In this document: positions 1-12,959 of the stretch, piece after piece
How the letters are laid out: the number at the start of each line of letters is the position of its first letter
Numbering within the stretch: position 1 is the first letter of the stretch
Assembly: GCA_046758445.1 (NCBI GenBank)
Contig: JBHIAE010000071.1
Location: 1 to 12,959 of the forward strand
Length of the DNA stretch: 12,959 bases
Reading direction: 5' to 3'
Origin: Candidatus Thorarchaeota archaeon
GTDB lineage: Archaea > Asgardarchaeota > Thorarchaeia > Thorarchaeales > Thorarchaeaceae
Notes under the pieces: model-generated
Databases searched by the model: none
Told to the model about the DNA's origin: nothing
The model's input: the letters and a program-made list of their open reading frames with translations, nothing else
Program-made: the position numbers and the translations under genes

Positions 1-459
1 GGACCTCTTGAGGACCTTGCTGAAGAGTACCAGCAGAAATGGGACAGGTATCTTAGCGATTCAAGATACGTGCTTTTGGATGAATGCAAGGAAACCCTAG
101 AAGAACTTCATAGGAGAGAAATCAAGCTGGGCATCGCATCGAACCGGTTTGGAAACCCCAGTCCATTCCTCAAGAGCGACTCAATACTGTCCCTCATGGA
201 TTCTGTTGAATATACGGCGGTTCCGGGCTACAAGAAACCCTCTCCATTCATGCTTCTGAAGGTGGCAGACGACCTTGGTATCAATCCTCGACGGTGCGTG
301 TACGTGGGCAACTATGTGCAATATGATGTAGAGGCGGCGATTCGCGCCGAGATGAAACCAATCCTGATTACATGGTGCAATCCGGAGGAGAAGGACAATG
401 CACCTCCTGATACGTTGATAATTGACCACATTCGAGAACTGCTCGACCTCTTGAAGTAG
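1..459 (+). CDS. HAD-superfamily hydrolase (phosphoglycolate phosphatase-like, family IA), 5'-truncated by the window edge
   Basis: Frame is open from base 1 (GPLEDLAEEYQQKWDRYLSDSRYVLLDECK...). It carries HAD motif II (LGIASN), motif III (GYKKPSP) and motif IV-like (VYVGNYVQYDVEAA), plus a typical C-terminus (PDTLIIDHIRELLDLL). Motif I lies outside the window. Confidence 0.85.
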   Translation, partial: GPLEDLAEEYQQKWDRYLSDSRYVLLDECKETLEELHRREIKLGIASNRFGNPSPFLKSDSILSLMDSVEYTAVPGYKKPSPFMLLKVADDLGINPRRCVYVGNYVQYDVEAAIRAEMKPILITWCNPEEKDNAPPDTLIIDHIRELLDLLK

Positions 460-514
460 TGAGGTATTGATGACCACAATGCTAATGCGTTTCTAGGTGA
501 GCAGATTCTTGTCT

Positions 515-1270
515 ATGAAGTTCAGGCTGCTTAGCATTCTCCTGTCAGTCACAATCTTGGCTTCGACTATCAACGCTGTGCCTATACGTGCCCAGACAAA
601 TCATAGTCTTCAGTGGGGTGTAGAGGTTGGCTATGAGGCCAGGTACGTTCTTCAAAGGAAGGTATTGGACCCTTCATTCGGGTCCTACCTAACTGACTAC
701 GCACCATTCATTGCCGGGTTGGACGTAGGACAGAGTCTGATTGCACTGGTAACTCATCTAGATCCCATCCCTGCTATGATCAATGAGTCGTCGCAAATGC
801 CGCGTTCCAACTGCACCCTCATACGAATGAATGATTCACAAGTGATCATGGAGGACATGTTCATGCTCGTGGTGCCCGTTGGCGACTGGGATTTCACTTC
901 AGAGATGAGCAACTTTAGCTTCTTTGAGGGCGCGTCCATTGTGGAAACAGATGATGAGTGGGGTACTGTGATTGATACGACTTTCGTCTTTGCACTGTTC
1001 CCTGTGAGCGTCTACATGGAGATGTTCTACGAGAAGACCAATGGTACTATGAAGAACATGCGCATGCGTGTCAACTTTGCTGGGAATGATATCATAGATC
1101 TCGTGTTTGCCAAGTGGTATCCAGGCATTCCCCTAATCCTACCCGGAGAGATTCAGCTCGGAACTATTATCGCAGTTGCTCTTATGGGAGTCGTTGGTAC
1201 TGTGTTAACACTCTTCGGCTATCGCAGATACAAGAAGAGGAAAGCTCTCCCACAAGAGTCCGGAGGGTGA
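515..1270 (+). CDS. Secreted, C-terminally membrane-anchored hypothetical (cell-surface) protein
   Basis: N-terminal signal peptide MKFRLLSILLSVTILASTINAVPIRA-Q (ATG 515; alternative GTG 497). C-terminal hydrophobic helix IQLGTIIAVALMGVVGTVLTLFGY followed by a basic stop-transfer tail RRYKKRK. No catalytic family recognised. Confidence 0.75.
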   Translation: MKFRLLSILLSVTILASTINAVPIRAQTNHSLQWGVEVGYEARYVLQRKVLDPSFGSYLTDYAPFIAGLDVGQSLIALVTHLDPIPAMINESSQMPRSNCTLIRMNDSQVIMEDMFMLVVPVGDWDFTSEMSNFSFFEGASIVETDDEWGTVIDTTFVFALFPVSVYMEMFYEKTNGTMKNMRMRVNFAGNDIIDLVFAKWYPGIPLILPGEIQLGTIIAVALMGVVGTVLTLFGYRRYKKRKALPQESGG

Positions 1271-1275
1271 TACTC

Positions 1276-1623
1276 TTGAAGAAAGAGATAGATGCAACCA
1301 GAAGAGTCGAATGTGGTTTTGGTGGGACTAGTGTGACTGTCCAAGTGGGAGAGAAGTTCTACTACGAGTTTCATAGACATGGTTCCGCTGGAGAGGATTC
1401 AGAGTTCGAGATCAGCGACAATACGGTCATAATGCATGAGAGGACAGAGAGCGAGTATCTGCATCCAGAGAGGATGAAGCCTGGACGGACTGGTAGGGAT
1501 GCAGAGCTCTGCAAGTGGTTCTTCAAGGCACTAAGGCCAGGCAAAGCCACACTCACCGTTCGAACAATGTATCGGTTTGAAATGAAAGATGAGTGCAGAA
1601 TCGATGTCACCGTCGTCTTCTAG
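1276..1623 (+). CDS. Small beta-rich protein, probable divergent chagasin/inhibitor I42-like Ig-fold protein
   Basis: GGAGGG (1262-1267) lies 8 nt before TTG 1276; the alternative GTG 1267 overlaps the upstream TGA. The pattern VTVQVGEKF...G..G.....W.FKALRPGKATL....YR......I.VTV resembles I42 domains. The first ~50 aa of the track ORF (1114) are only overlap with the upstream gene. Confidence 0.5.
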   Translation: MKKEIDATRRVECGFGGTSVTVQVGEKFYYEFHRHGSAGEDSEFEISDNTVIMHERTESEYLHPERMKPGRTGRDAELCKWFFKALRPGKATLTVRTMYRFEMKDECRIDVTVVF

Positions 1624-2246
1624 CCAAGAAACGAATTCTTGATTTCACTGTAGGACTTGTAGCTGAAGGGGCAGACCCTGACACAGACTGTGCAGCCATA
1701 GTACTCCATAAAGCATGGAAGACACTTCTCATTCACAATCTGCGTCACGAGACCATTCTCGTGCTCGACCGGCCTCTCAAGTATTGCTCCAGCGGGACAG
1801 TCCCTGACACACCAACTGCATGCATCACAAAAGTCCGCGACCCAGGAGTGCTCGTCCCTCTCAGCTATTGGCAATCTCTGGATGCTTGTGAGGACAGCTG
1901 CGAGCCTGGCCCTTGACCCAAATTCAGGAGTAATGATCAGACCATTCCGACCCAGCCATCCGATGCCAGCCATTTGTGCGAGAGGTGGATATAGAAGTAT
2001 CCCACCCAGCGGGTGTCCAGCCTGTACACCGTAACCATTTGATTTGAGGAAGTCTGCAATCCTATTGGCGTCTATCCCAAGATTGTCATATGCGTTCATG
2101 ATCATGTGCATGGTTTCGGAACTGGGAGCCATAGCAATCCTCTCTTGGTCCATCTCCATTGCCAACACTATTGCGTTGTCGTAGACGACACCCATTCCTT
2201 GGAAGATGATTCTCCTAGGGAGTTTCACGAACCCAATGGGACTCAC
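1620..2246 (-). CDS. 4Fe-4S dicluster protein of the epoxyqueuosine reductase (QueG)/reductive dehalogenase-like superfamily, apparently N-terminally short
   Basis: Motifs AGIGWLGRNGLIITPEFGSRARLAAVLT, FCDACSWCVRDCPAGAI and CLPCF-x4-GCTVCVRVCPF. The start is uncertain: GTG 2246 (VSPIGFVKLP, preceded by AAGGGTG) is preferred over the track start 2324. Confidence 0.75.
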   Translation of the reverse strand: MSPIGFVKLPRRIIFQGMGVVYDNAIVLAMEMDQERIAMAPSSETMHMIMNAYDNLGIDANRIADFLKSNGYGVQAGHPLGGILLYPPLAQMAGIGWLGRNGLIITPEFGSRARLAAVLTSIQRLPIAERDEHSWVADFCDACSWCVRDCPAGAILERPVEHENGLVTQIVNEKCLPCFMEYYGCTVCVRVCPFSYKSYSEIKNSFLG

Positions 2247-2997
2247 ACAAATCGACACCCTTCGAGCCCCAGACAAAGGTGTAGCCAGCTGAGTAGTCCA
2301 ACTGTTCACCTCTTTCGTAGACAAGTCTTAGCTCTCGAAGCCCCCGTTGATAGTCTTCCTCACCTATCTTGTGAAGCATAGAATATCCCATTCTCGAAAC
2401 CGTGTTCAGATAGTCCTCACCAAGAATGATGGGCGTGAATTTGAATGAGTTTGACCAGACCTCATTGAATCCACTGTTTGACATGCCTTGCTCAATCATC
2501 GGAATGTCAGGGTATCTGGCTTTGTCAACCTCAACAGTGGCAGGAAAGAACCGTGATGTCATCCTCTGCTCAATTTGCTCATGGGACTGAGTGACAACAC
2601 AGAGATGGCCACCAGGCTTTAGTACCCGCTGCATCTCCTGTAGTGCCAATTCCAAGCTCGACAAGTGATGAACTACCTCTGTCATGAACAGAATGTCGAA
2701 CAGCCCTGCAGGGAAGGGTATCGACTCTGCAAATGCTTGCACAAACTCAACCTCGGGGGCCTTTCTTACAGCCTCTACGAGCATTCCGAAGGAAGGATCC
2801 AGCCCATACATTCTTGCCCCAGTGGCTTGCTGAAACAGAAGTGTGTTGTTTCCCGTTCCGCATCCCACATCCAGGACCCTAGAGTCCGAGGATGGAGTCT
2901 TCACTTGAAGAATGTAGTAGACCATCTCGGGCTCACCCTCGCGGATTTGATCGTAGATCTTCGACACAGTATCGTAATCGATGGTCTTCTCGTTCAA
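2215..2997 (-). CDS. Class I SAM-dependent methyltransferase (Methyltransf_11/UbiE-like)
   Basis: Motif I VLDVGCGTG, GLDPSFGML, AESIPFPAGLFDIL, VVHH and RVLKPGG. TTG start with GGAG just upstream. Confidence 0.9.
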   Translation of the reverse strand: MNEKTIDYDTVSKIYDQIREGEPEMVYYILQVKTPSSDSRVLDVGCGTGNNTLLFQQATGARMYGLDPSFGMLVEAVRKAPEVEFVQAFAESIPFPAGLFDILFMTEVVHHLSSLELALQEMQRVLKPGGHLCVVTQSHEQIEQRMTSRFFPATVEVDKARYPDIPMIEQGMSNSGFNEVWSNSFKFTPIILGEDYLNTVSRMGYSMLHKIGEEDYQRGLRELRLVYERGEQLDYSAGYTFVWGSKGVDLCESHWVRETP

Positions 2998-3324
2998 ACG
3001 ACTCCACTAGTTGGGAAACTGCCAGACTGACATTTCAAGGCCTTGGTTGGATTTGCGTAACCACTGTTAGTCACAGTACCTTGATGCGTATCGCGTTCGT
3101 CTTATGGATAGTGCCAGTCTTCTTTGTGACATTCTTCTATGTGACGTTCTACATCCTTGGTTCATAGCAGATTCAGGATTCTCCACTGGCACTGCACTAG
3201 CTAGTGTGTGATGAGACTGTGGGGTTCTTTGGCTGAAAATCCAGGACGAGTCATTCGCTCACTGGTCGGTCTGTCTTGCAGGATTGAGCCAACCTCTAGA
3301 TGCAGAAGCTATTCCATTGATGCT

Positions 3325-3576
3325 TTAACTTCGTTTCTTGCGCTCGCGATCGTAGGATTCCCAGCTGTCAGCCGCTGAGGAAGCACCTCTTGACCTGAGC
3401 TCTGTAAGAACATACTCTCGAATCTCAGAACTTTCTATGGTTTCCTCAGTGCGAGAAGACAGAGAACTTGCAATCTCGCGGGCCGTGTCATAAGGGGCAC
3501 CGCTCCTGACAGCACTAACAACTACCTTCTCTGGCATGAATATCTCAGTTGATCCATCTCGTTTCTTGACTTCCAT
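3325..3576 (-). CDS. Stand-alone ATP-cone domain protein (83 aa)
   Basis: MEVKKRDGSTEIFMPEKV matches the ATP-cone signature V.KRDG..E.F...K; later IESSEIREYVLTEL. GGAGG lies 7 nt upstream of ATG 3576, so the track start 3615 is probably too long. Confidence 0.85.
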   Translation of the reverse strand: MEVKKRDGSTEIFMPEKVVVSAVRSGAPYDTAREIASSLSSRTEETIESSEIREYVLTELRSRGASSAADSWESYDRERKKRS

Positions 3577-3704
3577 CTCTTTGCCTCCTAGAAGGACAAT
3601 TGATGTTCTCCTCATTCAAGATAAGCTTGGTGGACATCAGATGCCGGACTTCTGGATCCAGTGTGTGGTACTAGGAAACAATCAGAAATCACAATGACTT
3701 GTAG

Positions 3705-4787
3705 CTATATCTTAGCCGTGCTTCTTTTAACAAGGTCCGCCATCACAACTGCGGTCAGACCTTCGACGGCTGGCATGGCTCTAGGGACTATGCATGGATC
3801 ATGCCTACCTCTTATCTCAAGAGTTGTTTCCTCCATCTTCACCACATCCACTGTACGTTGGGGTCTTGAAATACTAGGAGTCGGTTTGATGGCCAATCTA
3901 AACACCACCGGGGCCCCACTTGTGATGCCGCCTAGAACACCTCCAGCATTGTTTTGAGTCCAAGTGACTTTTCCATCCTCAATGACAAGAGGGTCGTTGT
4001 TCTCTGACCCGCGTAGCGCTGCGCCTCTGAAGCCAGACCCAAACTCTATTCCTTTGACTGCCGGAATACTAAACATGGCATGACTGACGACGCTCTCCAC
4101 TGAATCAAAGATTGGCTCTCCAATTCCAGCTGGAGTCCCAATGATGCGACACTCGATGACGCCACCAATAGAGTCGCCTTCCTGATTCACACGCTCTATC
4201 ACGGCCTTCATCCTTTCTACAGCCTCTATGTCCCCACTGCGAACCGGATTAGAGTAGACGTTGGACCTTATCTCGTCATCAGTGAGGTTTCTCTCAACAC
4301 TCACGTTCCCGATTTGTAGAACATGAGCAAGCACGTCGATGCCTCTTTCCTTCAGCAGTTGGCGTGCGATGCTTCCGCCCATGACCATTGCAGCAGTCAG
4401 TCTCCCTGAGAGAAAGCCGCCTCCACGATAGTCATTATAACCCCTGTACTTGACTCTAGCAGTGTAGTCCGCATGTCCTGGACGAGGGGTGTCCTTCATC
4501 TCCTCATATGATGATGAGTCTACGTTTCTATTGTGTATCGTCATCACCAACGGAGCGCCTGTCGTCTTTCCTTTGAAGACGCCACTTCGTATCTCAAAGA
4601 CATCAGATTCAGACCGAGGAGAAACAAGGGTCCCAGTTCCAGGTCGTCGTCGATTGAGTTCTGTCTGTATCTGAGCCATATCAATCTCAAGTCCGGGTGG
4701 GCAGCCCTCAACGACTACTCCAATACCTTCACCATGGCTCTCTCCGAATACCTGTATCTTGAAGTCCTTTCCAAACGTGAATGTCAT
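3705..4787 (-). CDS. aroC: Chorismate synthase
   Basis: FGESHG, RRRPG, PRPGHAD, RGGGFLSGRLTA, SIPAVKGIEFG, NNAGGVLGGIT, KPTPSI, RGRHDPC. GGAGG RBS and ATGA overlap with the aroA stop. Confidence 0.98.
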   Translation of the reverse strand: MTFTFGKDFKIQVFGESHGEGIGVVVEGCPPGLEIDMAQIQTELNRRRPGTGTLVSPRSESDVFEIRSGVFKGKTTGAPLVMTIHNRNVDSSSYEEMKDTPRPGHADYTARVKYRGYNDYRGGGFLSGRLTAAMVMGGSIARQLLKERGIDVLAHVLQIGNVSVERNLTDDEIRSNVYSNPVRSGDIEAVERMKAVIERVNQEGDSIGGVIECRIIGTPAGIGEPIFDSVESVVSHAMFSIPAVKGIEFGSGFRGAALRGSENNDPLVIEDGKVTWTQNNAGGVLGGITSGAPVVFRLAIKPTPSISRPQRTVDVVKMEETTLEIRGRHDPCIVPRAMPAVEGLTAVVMADLVKRSTAKI

Positions 4788-6082
4788 GTAATTCCTCCAG
4801 AATCATTCTCTTGGAGCCTCACCAGAGCTCCGATTGACTGTAAGTCCCTCATGAAGCCGGGGTAACTCTTCTTCACACACTCAATGTTCTCAACTATTGT
4901 CGGACCATCTGCCACGAGTCCTGCTATCACACAGGACATAGCTATGCGATGATCATCATGTGAGTCAAGGACAGCCCCATGGAGGGGAGTTGGACCACCT
5001 ACAACTAGACCGTCCTTTGATTCGTTTATTCTTGCACCCATCTTTCTCAACTCTTGAGATGTCGATGCTATTCTGTCACTCTCTTTGAGCCTTAGTCGTC
5101 CTGCATTGTATATCGATGTGGTACCTCTGGCCTGTGTTGCCAGAACGGTCAGCACGGGCACAAGGTCAGGGATATCAGATGCATCAATGTCAATGGCCTG
5201 AAGCTCATCGCTCTTGATTGCGAAACCCTCGCCCCCGGATCTAACTGATGATTCCATCGATTCGAGAAGATCTACGATAGCAGCATCTCCCTGAACAGAA
5301 TCAGTACGAAGTCCAGTCACGCTCACTCCTCCTGCGAGAGCTCCTGCAGCCATCAAGAAAGCAGCAGAAGAGAAATCGCCTTCGATAACGTATTCCTGCG
5401 GCCGGTATTCTTGACTGCCTTGGACCGTGAAATAGCTCCAGTCGCCTGATGGGACAGCTGCAACGCCAAACTGTTGCATAATTCCTAGAGTCATCTCAAC
5501 GTAAGGACGAGACTCTAGTCGCGTAGTCAGTTCAATCCTCGAGTCACCTTTGGCTCTTGAGCATGCGAATAGAAGTCCAGTTATGTACTGTGATGTCACA
5601 TCGCCGCGAATACTAGTCTTGCCACCCGTTAGACCTCGACCATGTATCTCTACGGGGGGTCTATCATTCCCATTTACAGATTTGGCATCTACGCCGAGCT
5701 TGCAGAGAGCTTCCAATAGATCACCCATCGGTCTTCTACGCAGGGTGTCATCACCCGTGAGCAGACATGTACCACTTGTGAGAGATGATAATGCAGTGAA
5801 GATCCTGAGAGTTGTGCCTGATCCGTGACAATCTATCTCTGACGGTGGTGCCTTGAGTTCGGATGGGCCGGTAATCTCTATGTCATCCTTCATATTCACG
5901 TCAGCACCCATCATCCTGGAAACTCGAAGTGTGATTTCGGTATCGTCGCTGAAGAGAGGGTCTCGAATTCTCGTGGTTCCACTTGAAAGGAGACCGCACA
6001 CAATAGCCCTGTGCGTGTAGCTCTTCGAGGGAGGTGCTGCCACAGATCCATCGATGACAGACCGATGAACTACGGCTCTCAG
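4784..6082 (-). CDS. aroA: 3-phosphoshikimate 1-carboxyvinyltransferase (EPSP synthase); probable CTG start at 6082
   Basis: PPSKSYTHRA, GSGTTLR, RPM, SQYITGLL, SRPYVEMT, EGDFSSA, PDL, RLKESDR, DDHRIAM, KSYPGF. The frame stays open upstream of GTG 6043 and encodes the expected first strand (L)RAVVHRSVIDGSVAAPPSKS from CTG 6082. Confidence 0.97.
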   Translation of the reverse strand: MRAVVHRSVIDGSVAAPPSKSYTHRAIVCGLLSSGTTRIRDPLFSDDTEITLRVSRMMGADVNMKDDIEITGPSELKAPPSEIDCHGSGTTLRIFTALSSLTSGTCLLTGDDTLRRRPMGDLLEALCKLGVDAKSVNGNDRPPVEIHGRGLTGGKTSIRGDVTSQYITGLLFACSRAKGDSRIELTTRLESRPYVEMTLGIMQQFGVAAVPSGDWSYFTVQGSQEYRPQEYVIEGDFSSAAFLMAAGALAGGVSVTGLRTDSVQGDAAIVDLLESMESSVRSGGEGFAIKSDELQAIDIDASDIPDLVPVLTVLATQARGTTSIYNAGRLRLKESDRIASTSQELRKMGARINESKDGLVVGGPTPLHGAVLDSHDDHRIAMSCVIAGLVADGPTIVENIECVKKSYPGFMRDLQSIGALVRLQENDSGGIT

Positions 6083-6603
6083 AGATTCAACCTCCTGATG
6101 ATTTCCTTGACAGCCTCATCGACGGTGAGTGCGTCTGTGTCTATCTCGATGTCCATTGCGTCTGAATACGTTGCTTCTCTTTCGGCGAGAAGTGCTGCAA
6201 CTCTTTGCTCGAGGTCTTCAGCCTTTTCGTTCAAGAGCGGACGAATTGCGTTAGAGGAGGTTCTGGAGAGTATAGTCTCAATGGAAGACGTTAGGAGAAC
6301 TACTGCAGAATTCTCCTTCACTAAGGCAGAGCTCGAAGGATTGAGTAGTGCACCGCCGCCTAGGCTAATCACTGATGATTTGAGTCTGTACACCTCTCTG
6401 ACAACTTCAGCTTCTATCTTCCGGAAGATACCCTCACCATCCTCCGAGAAGATACGTGAGATTGGTTTTCCCGCACGTTCCTCAATAAGAGAGTCGGTGT
6501 CGACAAACTCTCGTTTAAGTGAACTAGCGAGGGCACGTCCTATCGTTGTCTTGCCTGTGCCCATGAAGCCAATCAACGCGACGCTCCTCTTGGCAATCGT
6601 CAT
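6079..6603 (-). CDS. aroK: Shikimate kinase, bacterial (NMP-kinase fold) type
   Basis: Walker A LIGFMGTGKTT, FVDTD, IF..DGEGIFRKIE, SLGGG, RPLL, R...Y. ATGA overlap with the aroE stop. Confidence 0.96.
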   Translation of the reverse strand: MTIAKRSVALIGFMGTGKTTIGRALASSLKREFVDTDSLIEERAGKPISRIFSEDGEGIFRKIEAEVVREVYRLKSSVISLGGGALLNPSSSALVKENSAVVLLTSSIETILSRTSSNAIRPLLNEKAEDLEQRVAALLAEREATYSDAMDIEIDTDALTVDEAVKEIIRRLNL

Positions 6604-7451
6604 TCATGTCTTCCCCCTAGCGCCTCAAGTACTGCACCCCTCATGATCTCTATTGGTGGTTCTCTTCCGGTCCATAGCTCAAGGGACGCCGCCCCTTGGT
6701 GGACCAACATTCCTGAACCATCTATGGTTTTGCACCCTGCTTCCTCTGCTTCCTTCAGAAACCGGGTCCTCAGAGGATTGTATACAAGGTCCATGACTAC
6801 GAGTTCCTTTCTGAGAAGAGAGCCTCTCAGCGGAGTGCCGTTTATTGAGTGATCTCTCATGCCTACTGGTGTGCAGTTGACTAGAAGATCCGATTCCTGA
6901 AGCTCGTGCTTCGATGTGGGGAGGGCTCCAACTCGAATCTCTATGTTTCTGCCACGTTCTATGGCAGTCGCCAGCTCCTCCGCTTTGACCTGAGTACGGT
7001 TTAGGATGTCCAGTCTACGAACTCCTGCCTCAGCCAATGCAAAGGCAACGGCCTTTGCGGCACCCCCAGCACCTAGAATCGTTGCCGAGAGACCACGTGG
7101 GTCTACGTCCTGTTCCCTCAGCGCCTCATCAAAGCCTTCGATGTCGGTGTTACAACCTGTGACACCGTCGTCGTTACGGTAGAGCGTGTTCACTGATCCA
7201 ACTGCCAACCCTTCTTCAGAGATTGTCGTTAGGTGTGTCATGACTTCGGTTTTGTACGGAATAGTGATGTTGGCTCCTTCAAGTGCTCCGGTCCTTATGG
7301 ATTCCACTAATGCAGGCAGTTCGTCTTTGAGCAATGGTCTGGCCTCATAGCGGTACTCGTGCTTTAGGTCCATCGCGGCAAGAGATGCATTATGCATTAC
7401 AGGGCTCATAGAGTGACCCAATGGATGCCCAACCACGACAAGCAATTTCAT
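6600..7451 (-). CDS. aroE: Shikimate dehydrogenase
   Basis: GHPLGHSMSPVMHN, GANITIPYK, GSVNT, NTD, GAGGAA, NRT, VNCTPVGM, DLVYNP, GMLVHQG. Confidence 0.98.
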   Translation of the reverse strand: MKLLVVVGHPLGHSMSPVMHNASLAAMDLKHEYRYEARPLLKDELPALVESIRTGALEGANITIPYKTEVMTHLTTISEEGLAVGSVNTLYRNDDGVTGCNTDIEGFDEALREQDVDPRGLSATILGAGGAAKAVAFALAEAGVRRLDILNRTQVKAEELATAIERGRNIEIRVGALPTSKHELQESDLLVNCTPVGMRDHSINGTPLRGSLLRKELVVMDLVYNPLRTRFLKEAEEAGCKTIDGSGMLVHQGAASLELWTGREPPIEIMRGAVLEALGGRHE

Positions 7452-8122
7452 GGCAGAACCTCCAGAATCTTCCTCATCTCTGACAATGATATCTGGCCGG
7501 GGGCAGCCACTTCGCCGTGGTCCTGGGACACGTACATGAAAGGCGCCCCCAAGAAGAGTGCGCAGACCCTTGTGAACCTCCCAAGAGGGCCCATTCCAAA
7601 GGCTATAAGAGGCAGATTCGGCCGATTCTCCTGATCGTAGAGCCGCAATATTCTACGACAGTCGTCCTTGGTCTTAGGAGTTGTCACTAGTTTGATGATG
7701 TCCGGTTTCGCACTGCCAAGGCTGACCACCATACTCAGAAGATCAGCCTCATTGGGTGTCGAATCGTGGTAGTGCTTTGACACGATGAGACCGCATTCCA
7801 TCCTAGATGTCTGTTCTCTTACAAGTTCCAGGTGGGCCGAGTCGGTTTCAATCTCAACATCCACGTAGGATGCGCCTCCGGCCATGGCCATTAGCAGATT
7901 CCTGATACGTTGCTCCTCATTCCCATCAAAGAGTCCACCGTTCTCACGAGATCTACATGTTACAATGATTGGTTTCTCTGTTGCACGATAGATCTCCTCC
8001 AGCCGTTCGATTCGGTCCATGAAGTCCAATCTATGCTCAACCATGTCTGCCTCGGTAGATGACATGAACTCCATGCACTTCTTGGCAGTTCTCTCCGTCA
8101 GAGATACACAGAGCTTCTTCAT
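7448..8122 (-). CDS. aroD: Type I 3-dehydroquinate dehydratase
   Basis: VEHRLDF, IVTCRSRENGG, YVDVE, VSKH, IIKLV (Schiff-base Lys), MGPLGRFTR, AAPGQ. GAGGTGA RBS; ATG 8122 or adjacent GTG 8125. Confidence 0.95.
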   Translation of the reverse strand: MKKLCVSLTERTAKKCMEFMSSTEADMVEHRLDFMDRIERLEEIYRATEKPIIVTCRSRENGGLFDGNEEQRIRNLLMAMAGGASYVDVEIETDSAHLELVREQTSRMECGLIVSKHYHDSTPNEADLLSMVVSLGSAKPDIIKLVTTPKTKDDCRRILRLYDQENRPNLPLIAFGMGPLGRFTRVCALFLGAPFMYVSQDHGEVAAPGQISLSEMRKILEVLP

Positions 8123-8140
8123 CACGTCACCTCATTCTGT

Positions 8141-9220
8141 TTATTCGTTGTCTATTCGCTCTTCAGAAGACGCGACTGAAGCACCCACAAACCTCTCTGA
8201 TTCTACATACCTCGCTCGATCCGGCATGAGCCCTCCCACCTCGAGGCTTTCCATGAATTGGCGGAACATCTCAGGAGTGAGTGACTGCGCTCCGTCTACC
8301 AGGGCTTCTTCAGGCCGCGGATGAACTTCCATCATGATTCCATCCGCACCTACTGCAAGCCCACCACGAGCAAGGGGAATCACTATGTCTCTCTTGCCGG
8401 CTGCGTGGCTTGGATCCACCACTAGAGGAAGATGGGTCAGATTTCTCAAGACTGGAATGCTGCTCAGGTCCAATGTGAACCGGATGTGGTTACTGTGTGT
8501 TCTGATTCCTCGCTCACATAGGATGACGTTGTGGTTGCCTTCAGACATTATGTACTCTGCCGCGGAGAGGAGTTCAGTGAGTGTGGCCCACATTCCTCTC
8601 TTCAGCAAAACTGGTTTCATCGACCGGCCAGCACGTTTCAACAGGGAATAGTTCTGCATATTTCGAGCACCAATCTGTAGAATGTCGACATAGGTTTCCA
8701 CCGCGGCAAGGCTCTCTACATCCACTGCCTCCGATACTACCGGAAGACCAGTGCGCTCTCGGGCCTCAGCAAGAAGCTTCAAACCCTCAACTCCAAGACC
8801 CTGGAATGAATAGGGCGACGTCCGCGGCTTGAAAGCCCCTCCGCGTAGAATGTCGCCACCGATGTCCTTTACGAGCTCTGCAGACTCGATTATTTGTTCC
8901 CTGGATTCCACACTGCACGGCCCTGCAATGATCACAGGACGCTTTCCACCAATCTCGACGTCCCCGACCTCGATGACAGTGCCCTCTATCCTCACTTCGA
9001 TGTCTGCCAGCTTATACGGTTTGGTTACATGGATGACCTCCGTGACCCCAGGCAGTACTTCAAGCCTGCTTGAGTCCATCAGGTCGACGCTGCCGGTGAT
9101 GTTGATCACGGTTCGATGAGCCCCAGGATTGGGTAGTGCTTTGTATCCTAGCTCCTCGACGACTTCTATGACTCTCTCTATCTGTTCCTTTGTTGCATCC
9201 TTGTACATTACTACTAGCAT
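8141..9220 (-). CDS. aroF: DAHP synthase, type I-beta with N-terminal ACT-like (ferredoxin-like) regulatory domain
   Basis: IAGPCSVES, RGGAFKPRTSPYSFQG, QIGARNMQN, LLKRG, CERGIR, DPSH, EVHP, DGAQSL. The N-terminal ~70 aa (MLVVM...ATKEQIERV...VTKPYKLA) resemble the Thermotoga-type regulatory domain. GGAGGT lies 8 nt before ATG 9220 (alternative TTG 9226). Confidence 0.96.
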   Translation of the reverse strand: MLVVMYKDATKEQIERVIEVVEELGYKALPNPGAHRTVINITGSVDLMDSSRLEVLPGVTEVIHVTKPYKLADIEVRIEGTVIEVGDVEIGGKRPVIIAGPCSVESREQIIESAELVKDIGGDILRGGAFKPRTSPYSFQGLGVEGLKLLAEARERTGLPVVSEAVDVESLAAVETYVDILQIGARNMQNYSLLKRAGRSMKPVLLKRGMWATLTELLSAAEYIMSEGNHNVILCERGIRTHSNHIRFTLDLSSIPVLRNLTHLPLVVDPSHAAGKRDIVIPLARGGLAVGADGIMMEVHPRPEEALVDGAQSLTPEMFRQFMESLEVGGLMPDRARYVESERFVGASVASSEERIDNE

Positions 9221-9240
9221 TTTCAATTACCTCCGTTTCA

Positions 9241-10302
9241 CTAACTCAAATTGTACACCGATTCTACCACCCTTATCTCAGTCCTGCCCAGCTCGACAAG
9301 TACCGGAAGAATGAGCTGCCCATGCCGCACTTTCTTGTCCTGTCGCATGATTTCATCCAACCCTCTGACGTCCATGGATGACGGAATCTCAGTGGGCAGA
9401 CCAAACATGGATAGGATAGAAACCAGTAGTTCGCTGGACTGACTATCAAGAAGGCCCATCCTTTTAGCCAATTTAGCCTCCTCCACCATTCCCATTGCGA
9501 CTGCTTGACCATGTTGCACAGTGTGATCCGAGCAGATCTCTATGGCATGACCAATTGTGTGGCCAAAGTTTAGTATCTCCCTCTTTCTCCCCTCCTCTCT
9601 CTCATCCTGTTCAACGACTCGTGCCTTGTTCCTCAAGCATCTCTCCACAATCAGAGCGAGCGTGTCCAGATCTCTGTTGAGTATCTCATCCTTGCTGTTG
9701 ACAAGAATATCAAGCAACTCTGAGTCCATAATCATTCCATACTTGATAACCTCGGACAGTCCTGCTGTGAACTCATTTGCGGAAAGCGTCGTGAGAGTAC
9801 AGACGTCCGCTATCACAGCATGTGGCTGATAGAAGGTCCCGACCAGATTCTTCCCATCAGGAAGATTGACCGCAGTCTTGCCTCCAAGTGCTGAATCAAC
9901 CTGTGCCAGTAGTGTAGTTGGCACCTGAATCAGTCGCGTCCCTCTCTTGTATGTCGAGGCCACGAACCCGGCGATATCTCCAATGACTCCACCTCCGAGC
10001 GCGAGCACAGTATCAGACCTTGAAGCTAGATTCTCCGTTAGAAAGTCATAGAGTGCACCAGTCGTTTCCAATGTCTTGATAGACTCTCCAGCAGGGAGAA
10101 TCTTAGTAATCGCCTCTATGTCGGAACCATTCAGACCATTCAGAAGTGGATCGAGATGAATCTCTGAGATCACGCCATCAGTTATCACAAAGACTCTGTC
10201 CGCTGTATCACCTATGTGATGACCCACCTCGCCAAGGAGGTCTTGCCCGACACAGACGGGATAACGTCTGGTCTGCGTCTTTACTTCAAATGACACATAC
10301 AT
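9241..10302 (-). CDS. aroB: 3-dehydroquinate synthase (bacterial-type)
   Basis: GESIKT, ALGGGVIGDIAGF, RG...IQVPTTLLAQVDSALGGKTAVN, KNLVGTFYQP, EVIKY, LNFGHTIGHAIE, HGQAVAMGM, DKK. TAATG overlap with the tyrA stop. Confidence 0.98.
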   Translation of the reverse strand: MYVSFEVKTQTRRYPVCVGQDLLGEVGHHIGDTADRVFVITDGVISEIHLDPLLNGLNGSDIEAITKILPAGESIKTLETTGALYDFLTENLASRSDTVLALGGGVIGDIAGFVASTYKRGTRLIQVPTTLLAQVDSALGGKTAVNLPDGKNLVGTFYQPHAVIADVCTLTTLSANEFTAGLSEVIKYGMIMDSELLDILVNSKDEILNRDLDTLALIVERCLRNKARVVEQDEREEGRKREILNFGHTIGHAIEICSDHTVQHGQAVAMGMVEEAKLAKRMGLLDSQSSELLVSILSMFGLPTEIPSSMDVRGLDEIMRQDKKVRHGQLILPVLVELGRTEIRVVESVYNLS

Positions 10303-11186
10303 TATGAATCGCCCTCCGACACAGTCCCTCTCCCCATGATTTCCAGTAGGCGATACATCTCACCATACTTGTTCTCTAGGTTCATGTGCTGTTCTAGATT
10401 CGACTTTACGTTGGTGTAGAGCTCCCTAAAGTCATTGGTGTCCTGAGTGAGTGTGGCCAGTCCACTCTCAAGTTTCGATTGGAAATTCCTCAAGACACTG
10501 TCAACATGCGGATTCTCCTTGTGCAATGCTGCATGGAGGGCACAGGAATTTGACATGATACTGCCAGTGAGAAGCAGCTGGACTGCAAAGGTTGTGCCAC
10601 CCAGTCGCCTCAACGACGTCAGGTCTTCATCCGACAGGACTGAAGCTATGATCATGTTCACGAAGTATGGGAGAGAAACAGTAAGAGCCATGGCTCTATC
10701 ATGCTCTTCTCGGTCTACAGTGATGATCTGATACTTCGGGAAGAGTGCTTCAACGAGTCGCTGCTCGTCTTCTGGGTCCGATATCGGAACAAGTACCATC
10801 TTCTTATTCAATGAACGCGCACCCGGCCCAAACATTGGATGGATGGACAGAGGTCGTAACTGGAGAGCCACAATCTCATGAAGAACCTCGGGTATCTTTC
10901 CCTTTACGGATGATATCTCGCAGAGAACAGCATCTCGTTTCATGTGCGGAGCGACTTCTTGAATGACCTCGGCCGTAATCTCTATTGGCACTGAGATGAC
11001 AACCACATCAGCATTCTTCGCAGCTGCTGCATTGCTACTTGCCAGAGTCAGGTCGAATAACTCAGCTATCTCTCTCAATTCATTGCTTTGGGGATCTGAA
11101 GCTATGAGAGTGTGGCCGTGTTCATCGAAGTGTTCGAGAAGCCACCTACCCATCCGTCCTGCTCCACCGATGACTGCAATTTTCAT
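10302..11186 (-). CDS. tyrA: TyrA-family prephenate/arogenate dehydrogenase
   Basis: MKIAVIGGAGRMG Rossmann motif, VISVPI, EISSVK, SIHPMFGP, EEHDRAMA, GGTTF. GGAGGTG RBS and ATGA overlap at 11186-11183. The 39 extra N-terminal residues of the track ORF are overlap with the upstream gene. Confidence 0.93.
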   Translation of the reverse strand: MKIAVIGGAGRMGRWLLEHFDEHGHTLIASDPQSNELREIAELFDLTLASSNAAAAKNADVVVISVPIEITAEVIQEVAPHMKRDAVLCEISSVKGKIPEVLHEIVALQLRPLSIHPMFGPGARSLNKKMVLVPISDPEDEQRLVEALFPKYQIITVDREEHDRAMALTVSLPYFVNMIIASVLSDEDLTSLRRLGGTTFAVQLLLTGSIMSNSCALHAALHKENPHVDSVLRNFQSKLESGLATLTQDTNDFRELYTNVKSNLEQHMNLENKYGEMYRLLEIMGRGTVSEGDS

Positions 11187-12580
11187 CTCAACACCTCCTC
11201 CATTTGCTCCATTGCTTTGACAAGCAATTCCTTGGGCTGACAGACTGCTACTCTGAAGAATAAAGCATATTGAGAACCATAGACAGTCCCGGGCATTACA
11301 CATACGCCGGTTTCCGAGAGAAGCCGCTCTGCAAACTCCCGGCCTCGCATTAGTCCCTCGGCTAACTTAACGAAAATGTAGAAACCACCGTCAGCTTGGC
11401 GGAATGTAACCGGAAGTCTGCCCAGTAGTTTGTTGGTGATATCCAGCCTAGACTTGATCGTCGCTGCGTTGTCCTGCACTTCCTCTTCACAATCAAGTGC
11501 AGCAAGACCAGCATACTGAATGAACTCGGGAACACAGGTGACGTGCAAATGCTGCAGGCCAGCCATCTTCTTGATTGTGTCTTTGTCAGAAACTGCATAT
11601 CCCAATCTGAACCCGGTCATTCCATACGGCTTAGAGAAAGACTTGACAGTGACCTGGTTGCAATGCGGAAACTGTAGAATGCTTGTGTGGGGAGAATATG
11701 AGAATCTTGAATAGACCTCGTCGCTGACGATGCGAATGTCATTCTCTGCTGCAAGATCGACCAGCTTTCTCATTGTTGATTCGTCGAGTACTTTGCCAGT
11801 TGGATTGCATGGACTGTTCAGCATGATCATTCTTGTTGACGGGCTGACATTCCTTTGCAGAAGATCTACATCGAGATCCCAACCGTCATCTAGGTCAGTT
11901 GGAAAGTGGATAGGACGTCCGCCTACAGCTCTCACACACCTAGAATACGCCGGAAAGGACGGGTCGATGATAATGACCTCCTCCCCCGCTTGAATAGTTG
12001 TGGCCATACTTAGGAAGAGCGCATACTTGCCGCTCAAAGTCACAATGACTTCTTCCGGCGAGACATCTCGATCATATCGGGAACCGAGCTTATCGGCGAT
12101 CTTCTCCCTGAGAGATGGTATCCCAACAGACGGCGTATAGTGAGTGCATCCTGAGTCTACCGCCTCTGCCATGGCCTTCAATGCTGCTTCAGGAGGGCCA
12201 AAGTCTGGCTCACCTACTTCGAGATGGATTACTTCCCTCCCAGAACGTTCCATCTCCTTCGCTCTTACAAAGTGGGCGTGGGCATTGAATGCAACATTCG
12301 GCTCCGCGTCCTTCCTTTGTATACGAATGGAATCAGAGATGAGCTGGTTGAGCAGTCTTGCTCCGAAATCAGGATCAACACCAATCCCTCTGCATCGATT
12401 GACTACTGCCTCTCTTAGGTGAATCTCGACTTCACGATTGATGACTGGCGCTCCCAGGGCTGTTTTCTCCTTGGCCACATCTTCCACAAGCGAGTTGCGC
12501 CGTCCAACGCAATCTATGATCTCAAGTGTGATTCTCTCAATCTTACTGCGTAAGGCATCTAGCTGTGCCCTCTCTGTCAA
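11183..12580 (-). CDS. Fusion: AroQ-type chorismate mutase (N-terminal ~90 aa) + class I/II PLP-dependent (aspartate/aromatic/prephenate) aminotransferase
   Basis: N-terminus LDALRSKI...RRNSL...KEK...REVE...DSIRIQ fits the AroQ pattern. The C-terminal part has HLEVGEPDF, HYTPSVGIPSLR, NSPCNPTG, SDEVY, SFSKPYGMTGFRLG (PLP Lys) and GGFY. TTG 12580 is preferred over ATG 12628 because AAGGGGGT lies 9 nt upstream and AroQ homology begins right there. Confidence 0.9.
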   Translation of the reverse strand: MTERAQLDALRSKIERITLEIIDCVGRRNSLVEDVAKEKTALGAPVINREVEIHLREAVVNRCRGIGVDPDFGARLLNQLISDSIRIQRKDAEPNVAFNAHAHFVRAKEMERSGREVIHLEVGEPDFGPPEAALKAMAEAVDSGCTHYTPSVGIPSLREKIADKLGSRYDRDVSPEEVIVTLSGKYALFLSMATTIQAGEEVIIIDPSFPAYSRCVRAVGGRPIHFPTDLDDGWDLDVDLLQRNVSPSTRMIMLNSPCNPTGKVLDESTMRKLVDLAAENDIRIVSDEVYSRFSYSPHTSILQFPHCNQVTVKSFSKPYGMTGFRLGYAVSDKDTIKKMAGLQHLHVTCVPEFIQYAGLAALDCEEEVQDNAATIKSRLDITNKLLGRLPVTFRQADGGFYIFVKLAEGLMRGREFAERLLSETGVCVMPGTVYGSQYALFFRVAVCQPKELLVKAMEQMEEVLR

Positions 12581-12765
12581 AGACCATCGACCCCCTTTGA
12601 GATGATTACAGTCAGCTCTCTGTTGCATGACATGAATTCACTAGCCACTAGAGAGGTCCCATCGGGAATCCCAGCATTTGCAGAGTCATCAGTTAGAACC
12701 ATAGAATCACCAGAACAAGGACCTGGGGTAAACAGGTCAAAACAAGTCAGTGACTCTCGAATCAC
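12577..12765 (-). other. 62-codon bridging upstream ORF (no Tyr or Trp codons) between the leader peptide and the first operon gene
   Basis: Its GTG start (12765) overlaps the leader TGA (GTGA) and its TGA stop (12579-12577) overlaps the TTG start of the fusion gene (TTGA). No recognisable homology. Confidence 0.35.
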
Positions 12766-12787
12766 AGACTATAGCTATAACTATAGT
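12720..12787 (-). terminator. Putative attenuator RNA structures: three hairpins and a U-rich tract
   Basis: In mRNA sense: H1 ACUAUAG-UUAUAG-CUAUAGU (12787-12768, on the Tyr codons); H2 AGUC-U-GUGAUU-CGAG-AGUCAC-U-GACU (12770-12745, containing the leader stop) followed by UGUUUUGACCUGUUU; H3 GACCUG-UUUACCC-CAGGUC (12738-12720). Found by eye; no folding energies computed. Confidence 0.5.
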
Positions 12788-12860
12788 AGCCACTAAACTG
12801 ACCGGCTCTACCAGTCATGTACATGTAAGTGGCTTTCTCAGTGAACTTCGAGAGTTTCAT
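12762..12860 (-). CDS. Putative Tyr-rich leader (attenuator) peptide, 32 aa: MKLSKFTEKATYMYMTGRAGQFSGYYSYSYSL
   Basis: Manual translation of the minus strand from ATG 12860 to TGA 12764-12762 gives 6 Tyr, 2 Phe and 0 Trp, with the cluster TAC TAT AGT TAT AGC TAT AGT just before the stop. It lies between the putative promoter and a tyrosine-biosynthesis operon. Internal Met13 and Met15 are alternative starts. Confidence 0.8.
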   Translation of the reverse strand: MKLSKFTEKATYMYMTGRAGQFSGYYSYSYSL

Positions 12861-12885
12861 TAGCCGGCTTCTTCTCTACGAAGCC

Positions 12886-12899
12886 TATTATACTTTGTC
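12886..12899 (-). promoter_or_regulatory. Putative archaeal promoter (BRE-like GACAAAG + TATA-like TATAATA) for the leader/aro operon
   Basis: The minus strand reads tGACAAAG-TATAATA-ggc. The box ends 25 nt before the leader ATG, the spacing expected when transcription starts at or next to the ATG (leaderless mRNA). Confidence 0.6.
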
Positions 12900-12959
12900 A
12901 GCAGAGCGGCTCTGTTGCAAAACTGATGTAACACTCGGACAGAAAGAGTGGGAGGGGTG

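Follow-up and report, generated by a model that had tools for sequence, protein, structure and literature searches.

We analyzed a 12,959-nucleotide (nt) stretch of DNA from a Candidatus Thorarchaeota archaeon of the family Thorarchaeaceae (GenBank assembly GCA_046758445.1, contig JBHIAE010000071.1, positions 1 to 12,959 of the forward strand), hereafter the window, the minus strand of which carries a shikimate/tyrosine operon. The operon is preceded by a leader that opens with a short, tyrosine-rich open reading frame (ORF), termed uORF1 (upstream ORF 1), and this leader, a candidate sensor of tyrosine supply, is the subject of this work. Among public genomes, the nearest relative, with 87% identity in the first enzyme of the operon, is a metagenome-assembled genome of a Candidatus Thorarchaeota archaeon. 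The features of the locus needed first are the following.

12886 to 12897, minus strand: archaeal promoter, with a purine-rich AAAG resembling a transcription factor B recognition element and the TATA box TATAATA (12892-12886), from reading of the sequence.
12762 to 12860, minus strand: uORF1, the Tyr-rich leader ORF of 32 codons, from conservation of the open frame.
11183 to 12580, minus strand: chorismate mutase-aminotransferase fusion, the first enzyme gene, with a TTG start at 12580-12578 (Pfam CM_2 and Aminotran_1_2).
3705 to 11303, minus strand: the rest of the operon, TyrA, AroB (3-dehydroquinate synthase), DAHP synthase, AroD, AroE, AroK, EPSP synthase and chorismate synthase (Pfam).

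An ATG at 12860-12858 and a TGA at 12764-12762 bound uORF1 and, as stated in a preliminary description of this DNA that was made from its letters alone, the frame between them holds 32 sense codons with six Tyr (codons 12, 14, 25, 26, 28, and 30), two Phe (codons 6 and 22), and no Trp. The Tyr cluster occupies 12771-12788, and the other Tyr codons lie at 12825-12827 and 12819-12821. The TATA-like box that had been placed directly upstream is the TATAATA listed above; its center is ∼27 nt 5′ of the uORF1 ATG, which is the usual archaeal TATA-to-start distance, and a AAAGTATAATAGG-like promoter is kept ∼24 nt 5′ of an ATG or GTG start codon in all intact leaders at orthologous loci. With a start codon only ∼26 nt past the conserved TATA box, uORF1 probably heads a leaderless mRNA, and the transcript should begin at, or 1–2 nt before, the uORF1 ATG. 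Further, the reported distance of 181 nt from the uORF1 stop codon to the first enzyme gene agreed with our reading: we took the TTG at 12580 as the start of the fusion gene, which has its own Shine-Dalgarno site (GGGGG at 12591-12595), because TTG, ATG, and GTG alternate at this column of the orthologue alignment. With respect to gene content, the preliminary description had recognized the Tyr branch (chorismate mutase, aminotransferase, and TyrA), which is indeed present, but the operon is not limited to Tyr steps and includes the entire shikimate pathway. The gene order assigned with Pfam is chorismate mutase-aminotransferase fusion, TyrA, 3-dehydroquinate synthase, DAHP synthase, AroD, AroE, shikimate kinase (of the bacterial type), EPSP synthase, and chorismate synthase, and this nine-gene operon comprises the complete shikimate pathway and the tyrosine branch.

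The tyrosine content of uORF1 exceeds chance. At least four Tyr within the last 14 codons were found in only 2 of the 2577 TATA-preceded short ORFs of the genome, uORF1 being one of the two, and Tyr accounts for 3.1% of codons genome-wide; the match between the enriched amino acid and the pathway had been put forward as the strongest argument for regulation. We then asked how far the short ORF is kept among relatives. The preliminary description had proposed a search for Tyr-rich short ORFs before orthologous operons, and such an ORF is present there, behind the conserved TATA box: it lies at the same place in 12 of 12 relatives that have the full-length fusion gene as first gene. Because DNA BLAST across the family gave few loci, a covariance model was built from 14 leaders. 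The model returned exactly one match per genome in 23 of the 86 family genomes, belonging to 6 of the 16 genera, always before the shikimate/tyrosine operon, and no match among 125 genomes drawn from 26 further families in the phylum. The element is confined to one Asgard family, with a single copy per genome. Two further genera contain diverged versions, the ends of which are still aromatic-rich.

Among the covariance-model loci, the frame is open over 29–32 codons in 22 of 23. The start codon stands at the same position in all 22 of these genome leaders and is ATG in 10 loci and GTG in 12, with every GTG leader carrying an in-frame ATG at codon 5. The stop codon, which may be TGA, TAG, or TAA, is always just 5′ of the strand named P1 3′ below, and indels between clades within uORF1 are of 3 or 6 nt. 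The 22 leaders contain no in-frame stop codon, compared with 75 and 60 in the other two frames; column permutation gave means of 8.6 (global) and 5.0 (within clades) in-frame stops and probabilities of finding none of <0.0005 and 0.001, respectively, in a test that is somewhat generous because permuting columns breaks the linkage by common descent. Every leader has three to six Tyr codons, and the start position, the stop position, the frame, and two invariant TAT codons recur in all intact orthologous leaders. In contrast to the frame, its ends, and the Tyr triplets, the uORF1 peptide itself is under little constraint; several positions vary widely (for example S, W, I, and R at one, and Y, T, Q, and H at another), and the best-conserved part is formed by the last 9–10 residues, which are YSGYYSYYL-like with Y/F exchanges. 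Retention of these three features would be expected of a regulatory leader, but part of it could stem from constraints on the RNA.

An unbiased metagenome sample of fusion genes yielded three more open leaders, two of them near-identical to genome loci. In more distant metagenome fusions, which are sited behind chorismate synthase, the leader was absent. One metagenome relative with 52% identity in the fusion (L080:150-535) lacks a Tyr-rich uORF1 and keeps a 41-codon frame resembling the second leader ORF (uORF2, below), with four Tyr and two Phe and a stop codon overlapping the TTG start (TTGA), so that in this lineage the sensing codons may have moved into the downstream ORF. Two other loci (L082:895-1100 and L088:1-200) have a diverged leader that is without an open Tyr frame and retains TAGCCACT- and TTTTGGTG-like motifs; the covariance model scores only its opposite strand (35 bits).

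The distribution of the element bears on whether uORF1 might be an independent small-protein or small-RNA gene that merely adjoins the operon. A conserved frame of 29–32 codons could encode a micro-protein, but the element occurs once per genome and solely before the shikimate/tyrosine operon, and its peptide sequence is poorly constrained. Further, in genome G013 (L077:1455-1760, C148), the operon has been deleted from the Shine-Dalgarno site of uORF2 through to a methyltransferase gene, the counterpart of which in the window (62% identical at the protein level) is found 3′ of the operon. Relative to the most closely related intact leader, the relic left at this locus has lost the TATA box, its start codon has changed from GTG to GAG, its frame is broken by a 1-nt deletion in P1, and one P2 pair is lost. 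Decay of promoter, start codon, and frame following deletion of the operon argues that the leader has no life of its own once the operon is gone, and we regard an independent gene as extremely unlikely.

The RNA of uORF1 is predicted to fold back on itself through three helices, P1 (in two parts), P2, and P3, which together enclose the whole ORF.

12847 to 12855, minus strand: P1a 5′ strand, uORF1 codons 2-5, pairing with 12753-12761.
12753 to 12761, minus strand: P1a 3′ strand, from 1 nt past the uORF1 stop codon, pairing with 12847-12855.
12838 to 12843, minus strand: P1b 5′ strand, codons 7-8, pairing with 12763-12768 and thereby overlapping the Leu codon and the stop codon.
12828 to 12835, minus strand: P2 5′ strand, pairing with 12787-12794 (Ser-Gly-Tyr codons).
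12800 to 12816, minus strand: P3 hairpin, inside P2, 92% paired with three pairs changed on both sides.

Over 25 sequences, P1a is 91% paired, with changes on both sides in four of nine pairs, and its pairs alternate among genera between C-G, A-U, and G-C or between C-G and U-A. P1b is 64% paired overall, with three pairs changed on both sides and a shifted register in genus g5. P2 is 84.5% paired, and the five base pairs of its core are 88–100% paired. The 29 pairs of P1–P3 are together 83.9% paired, with 13 pairs changed on both sides, and their covariation score of 0.32 compares with 0.156 for shuffled alignments (0 of 500 reached 0.32) and 0.03–0.09 with the partners slid. By these measures, P1, P2, and P3 are a conserved structured domain with covariation. 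In six sequences, a P2 pair is swapped from G-C to A-U, which replaces Ala by Thr in the peptide and preserves the pair; pairing of the RNA is thus itself under selection. The P2 3′-strand motif (AGTGGCTAG) occurs a second time at 12640-12649 on the minus strand, inside uORF2, with a TAGTGG-like sequence near this position in several orthologues; this second copy could serve as a partner for the P2 5′ strand if the first were masked.

The region between uORF1 and the first enzyme gene contains the elements through which the leader would act.

12720 to 12738, minus strand: P5 hairpin, followed by a U-rich tail (12712-12719), present in 25 of 25 leaders.
12700 to 12711, minus strand: Shine-Dalgarno site GGTGAT (12706-12711) and uORF2 ATG (12700-12702), invariant in the orthologue alignment.
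12577 to 12702, minus strand: uORF2, a putative relay ORF of 41 codons, the TGA of which overlaps the TTG start of the fusion gene (TTGA), from its stop/start geometry.

The preliminary description had proposed a ribosome-mediated attenuator, and a hairpin with a U-rich tail that weakly resembles a terminator does exist; no proven terminator was found, and the output stage looks translational because of the Shine-Dalgarno site, the relay uORF2, and the stop/start overlap with the first gene. The P5 hairpin differs in sequence between genera (mean z −2.4) and, with its tail, fits a simple terminator pattern. We did not rely on transcription attenuation because the U runs are short (at most 4), the spacing differs between genera (0 to 13 nt), and no covarying antiterminator was found.

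TTYTGGTG and the ATG of uORF2 are invariant in the orthologue alignment and present in 22 of 22 intact leaders. A longer, 62-codon ORF that would bridge the region from a GTG at 12765 was rejected because the conserved unit begins at the Shine-Dalgarno site and ATG; the extension 5′ of the ATG at 12702 is kept in the closest relatives only. Across leaders, uORF2 has 25–52 codons and a poorly conserved peptide, and its stop codon lies between an ∼8-nt overlap with and a 2-nt gap from the fusion start in 22 of 22 loci (TTGA, ATGA, TGATG, or GTGA). Such an overlap is described as the geometry of termination-reinitiation coupling in archaea and bacteria (PMC6728339), and because the geometry matches we read uORF2 as a positive relay that is predicted to be translationally coupled to the fusion gene. 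The same observation would also suit a leader that serves constitutive expression, in which uORF1 and uORF2 serve only for ribosome loading, for protection of the 5′ end, or for unfolding of the region where the first gene starts, with no sensing of an amino acid: the uORF2 overlap is the ordinary coupling geometry of archaeal operons (PMC6728339), and leaderless first cistrons are common in archaea (PMC4983044). We consider this very unlikely given that it leaves unexplained the pathway-matched Tyr enrichment, the invariance of two Tyr codons, the compensatory changes in the two-state pairing described next, and the length and strong conservation of the leader.

The P1a 3′ strand, extended by CAC (to 12750), doubles as an anti-Shine-Dalgarno strand with 12700-12711 as its alternative partner. 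In the window, the helix between the P1 3′ strand and the uORF2 Shine-Dalgarno site has a free energy of −12.1 kcal/mol; across g1, the genus to which the window belongs, and genus g6, the values are about −12 to −16.7 kcal/mol (p ≤ 0.025 versus shuffles). In both genera, the P1 3′ strand is the best partner of the uORF2 Shine-Dalgarno/ATG region anywhere upstream, the helix begins 5–6 nt past the uORF1 stop codon, and between the two genera both of its strands have changed together in sequence and length. The best folds with the P1 5′ strand free and with it masked are 1–5 kcal/mol apart, and the helix of the masked state spans the Shine-Dalgarno site, the spacer, and the ATG of uORF2. The attenuator wiring put forward in the preliminary description is retained in so far as the frame is kept open and alternative RNA pairings exist; it is not of the trpL type, with the 5′ end of the ORF pairing just past its own stop codon.

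We propose that the leader is a cis-acting, ribosome-read tyrosine-codon attenuator of the shikimate/tyrosine operon mRNA that acts on translation, and we judge the chances of this proposal to be slightly better than even. According to the proposal, transcription would start at or next to the uORF1 start codon, and uORF1 would be translated as a leaderless first cistron, with its Tyr codons tying the transit of the ribosome to charged tRNA-Tyr. The position of the ribosome on uORF1 would then choose between P1, which leaves the Shine-Dalgarno site accessible, and the anti-Shine-Dalgarno helix, which closes it. A ribosome held at the Tyr codons would sit between the two P1 strands and cover neither, so that P1 would close before the Shine-Dalgarno site is transcribed, leaving the site open and the operon on. 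Conversely, a ribosome reaching the stop codon would keep the P1 3′ strand masked until the Shine-Dalgarno site has been made, and its release would allow the local hairpin to form and turn the operon off. Translation of uORF2 would pass to the first enzyme gene through the stop/start overlap.

A number of observations weigh against this proposal, and the sign of the switch is its weak point. The preliminary description had inferred that a stall at the Tyr codons under Tyr-tRNA limitation switches the operon on; simple modeling did not show that such a stall would open the ribosome site of uORF2. At equilibrium, accessibility of the Shine-Dalgarno site in the free RNA was 0.17, 0.09, and 0.22 in g1, g6, and g5, respectively; it was lowest of all with the first codons masked (0.01, 0.02, and 0.05–0.07), and a ribosome moved along uORF1 gave no opening when placed on the Tyr cluster. 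The simple model in which a stall unmasks the site is therefore unsupported by equilibrium ribosome-mask modeling, and stalling as an on-signal needs a kinetic argument together with a low initiation frequency; the kinetic model requires that following ribosomes load infrequently, which we infer rather than observe. A partner of the Shine-Dalgarno site common to all genera was sought, and pairing was significant only in g1 and g6; g5 shows weak pairing with the stretch past the stop codon or with the P2 5′ strand, and g7, g2, and g12 are without supported pairing to the P1 3′ strand. As to the start codon, 12 of the 22 genome leaders begin with GTG, and a metagenome leader of a new lineage (L093) has a GTG start and no in-frame ATG. 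Analogous leaders, which the preliminary description had suggested looking for before other amino-acid operons of the genome, did not emerge from a crude scan for a TATA box plus short ORF, which returned noise only. Conservation of uORF1 and of the helices, the alternative pairing in two genera, and the geometry of uORF2 are observed, whereas predictions supply the point where transcription starts, the translation of uORF1 and uORF2, the effect of tyrosine, and the direction and kinetics of switching.

Accessibility in the model was highest with the ribosome on the uORF1 stop codon (mean 0.26 versus 0.20 for the free RNA; the differences are small), and this result would suit a sensor of a different kind. 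The C-terminal YSGYYSYYL-like peptide could arrest the ribosome in the presence of free tyrosine or a pathway intermediate, and unarrested ribosomes would melt the anti-Shine-Dalgarno helix and so permit translation of uORF2, a positive hand-over that the end product switches off. This chain has the right sign without a kinetic argument; in addition, the last 9–10 residues are the best conserved part of the peptide, with Y/F exchanges, and the anti-Shine-Dalgarno strand begins 5–6 nt past the stop codon in g1 and g6. Against it, conservation of peptide and RNA is inseparable here, several peptide positions vary widely, the accessibility differences on which it would draw are small, and our literature search found no archaeal arrest peptide. 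We consider a nascent-peptide sensor improbable. There is also little likelihood, in our estimation, of a eukaryote-like mode of action independent of hungry codons, in which free tyrosine would be sensed within the exit tunnel by the conserved C-terminal end of the uORF1 peptide, and the anti-Shine-Dalgarno/P5 hairpin would juxtapose at its base the uORF1 stop codon and the uORF2 start codon so that terminating ribosomes are handed across; if true, an Asgard archaeon would possess a reinitiation relay bridged by RNA structure, akin to arrest-peptide uORFs and to shunting.

The pattern of substitution within uORF1 likewise counts against the attenuator. The two invariant Tyr codons are always TAT, compared with a TAT:TAC ratio of 46:54 in the genome, the neighboring Ser codons are of the AGY type wherever Ser is retained, and codon-position entropies of 0.75, 0.87, and 0.87 bits reveal no third-position excess, for which reasons conservation of the Tyr-Ser stretch is explicable at the level of the RNA; the entropy test cannot separate coding from RNA constraint. 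Such conservation at the nucleotide level would be expected of a structured cis-regulatory RNA, that is, a riboswitch or a protein- or tRNA-binding site, in which P1–P3 bind a ligand and set P1 against the anti-Shine-Dalgarno helix, the frame being incidental or secondary. Consistent with this alternative, P1–P3 covary strongly and enclose the whole ORF, the P2 swap keeps the pair at the cost of an Ala-to-Thr change, and two states within 1–5 kcal/mol are like the expression platforms of riboswitches. Nonetheless, it does not explain why an ATG or GTG stands at the predicted start of transcription in every intact leader, why in-frame stops are avoided and indels are multiples of 3 nt, why the stop codon holds its place while changing its identity, or why repeated Tyr triplets match a tyrosine operon. 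Further, a scan of the whole window with Rfam 15 matched no family at E ≤ 1, T-box models included, and stabilization of P1 would open the ribosome site, which is the wrong sign for an end-product ligand. A structured RNA of this kind is the main rival of the attenuator but, in our view, rather unlikely.

Several other features of the genome and its surroundings were recorded. An inverted repeat, GGCTTC-N8-GAAGCC, lies at 12866-12885 between the TATA box and the uORF1 start codon; it is found in the closest relatives only and is absent from other genera. In sister loci, a Cys-rich, zinc-ribbon-like ORF on the same strand (L011:61-189) ends ∼80 nt 5′ of the TATA box, a position lost to the contig end in the window. 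At the other end of the operon, directly 3′ of chorismate synthase and on the operon strand, an ORF of 96 amino acids at 3325-3615 (minus strand) is made solely of an ATP-cone domain (Pfam E 9e-8) and could be a candidate nucleotide-sensing regulator. The pheA gene is located elsewhere in the genome, and no clear leader was seen in the region 5′ of it. A search of the genome, which is 92.7% complete, gave no member of the TrpE/anthranilate synthase family (PF00425), a family present in 14 of 14 control genomes, which suggests either tryptophan auxotrophy or an absent contig.

Ribosome-read leader peptides are a textbook bacterial device, and trpL, pheL, hisL, thrL, leuL, and ilvL are the classical enterobacterial leader-peptide transcription attenuators. 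Like them, the leader described here has a short ORF in which cognate codons are found toward the 3′ end, helices that would be mutually exclusive (supported in g1 and g6), and a stop codon placed such that a terminating ribosome would mask the strand that decides the fold. It differs from them in its predicted leaderless start, in that Tyr is the putatively sensed codon, and in that no proven terminator/antiterminator pair was found; in addition, the strands are permuted, such that the competing strand falls within the first codons of the ORF and would lie behind a stalled ribosome. Among published systems, the nearest is that of the polycysteine leaderless short ORFs of mycobacteria (Ms5788A class; Canestrari et al.), which act on translation (bioRxiv 10.1101/834739). 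In both cases, a short first cistron of a biosynthetic operon, leaderless by prediction in the present one, contains a cluster of codons for the end product. The mycobacterial system is bacterial and concerns Cys, whereas the present one is archaeal with putative Tyr sensing. Moreover, the stalled ribosome of the mycobacterial short ORF directly blocks the sequestering structure, whereas in the present leader the Tyr codons lie outside the anti-Shine-Dalgarno strand, the role of competing strand falls to the 5′ end of the ORF, and a second, putative relay uORF stands between the sensor and the enzyme gene.

Translational attenuation of ermC and cat is similar in that the position of a ribosome on the leader ORF remodels a hairpin hiding the next Shine-Dalgarno site, but there the trigger is an antibiotic together with the nascent peptide and not the supply of an amino acid, and there is no relay uORF. 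Tyrosine genes are listed as T-box-regulated, and attenuators are named for His, Thr, and Phe (PMC1262725). The tyrosine T-box of Firmicutes is, as here, an RNA leader of tyrosine-related genes containing Tyr triplets; a T-box has one specifier codon in a defined Stem I, whereas the leader in the window has an open frame at the predicted 5′ end of the transcript and no T-box match (Rfam, E ≤ 1). A further likeness may be drawn to GCN4, ATF4, and the fungal arginine attenuator peptide, where two serial uORFs, the second abutting or overlapping the main start, accompany amino-acid-related control. These eukaryotic systems depend on scanning and eIF2, whereas the second uORF here has a Shine-Dalgarno site and the geometry of prokaryotic termination-reinitiation.

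Our literature search found no archaeal leader-peptide attenuator; subscription papers were incompletely covered, so absence is unproven. The leader is compact (∼280 nt), comparatively well defined, and comes with natural compensatory variants and a decayed copy, all of which lends it to direct tests with reporters or cell-free extracts. Asgard archaea are the closest known relatives of eukaryotes, and if the proposal holds, they too would use translating ribosomes to sense amino acids. The device would be built from typically archaeal parts, namely a leaderless first cistron and coupled downstream cistrons led by a Shine-Dalgarno site, in a strand order unlike that of the trp paradigm.

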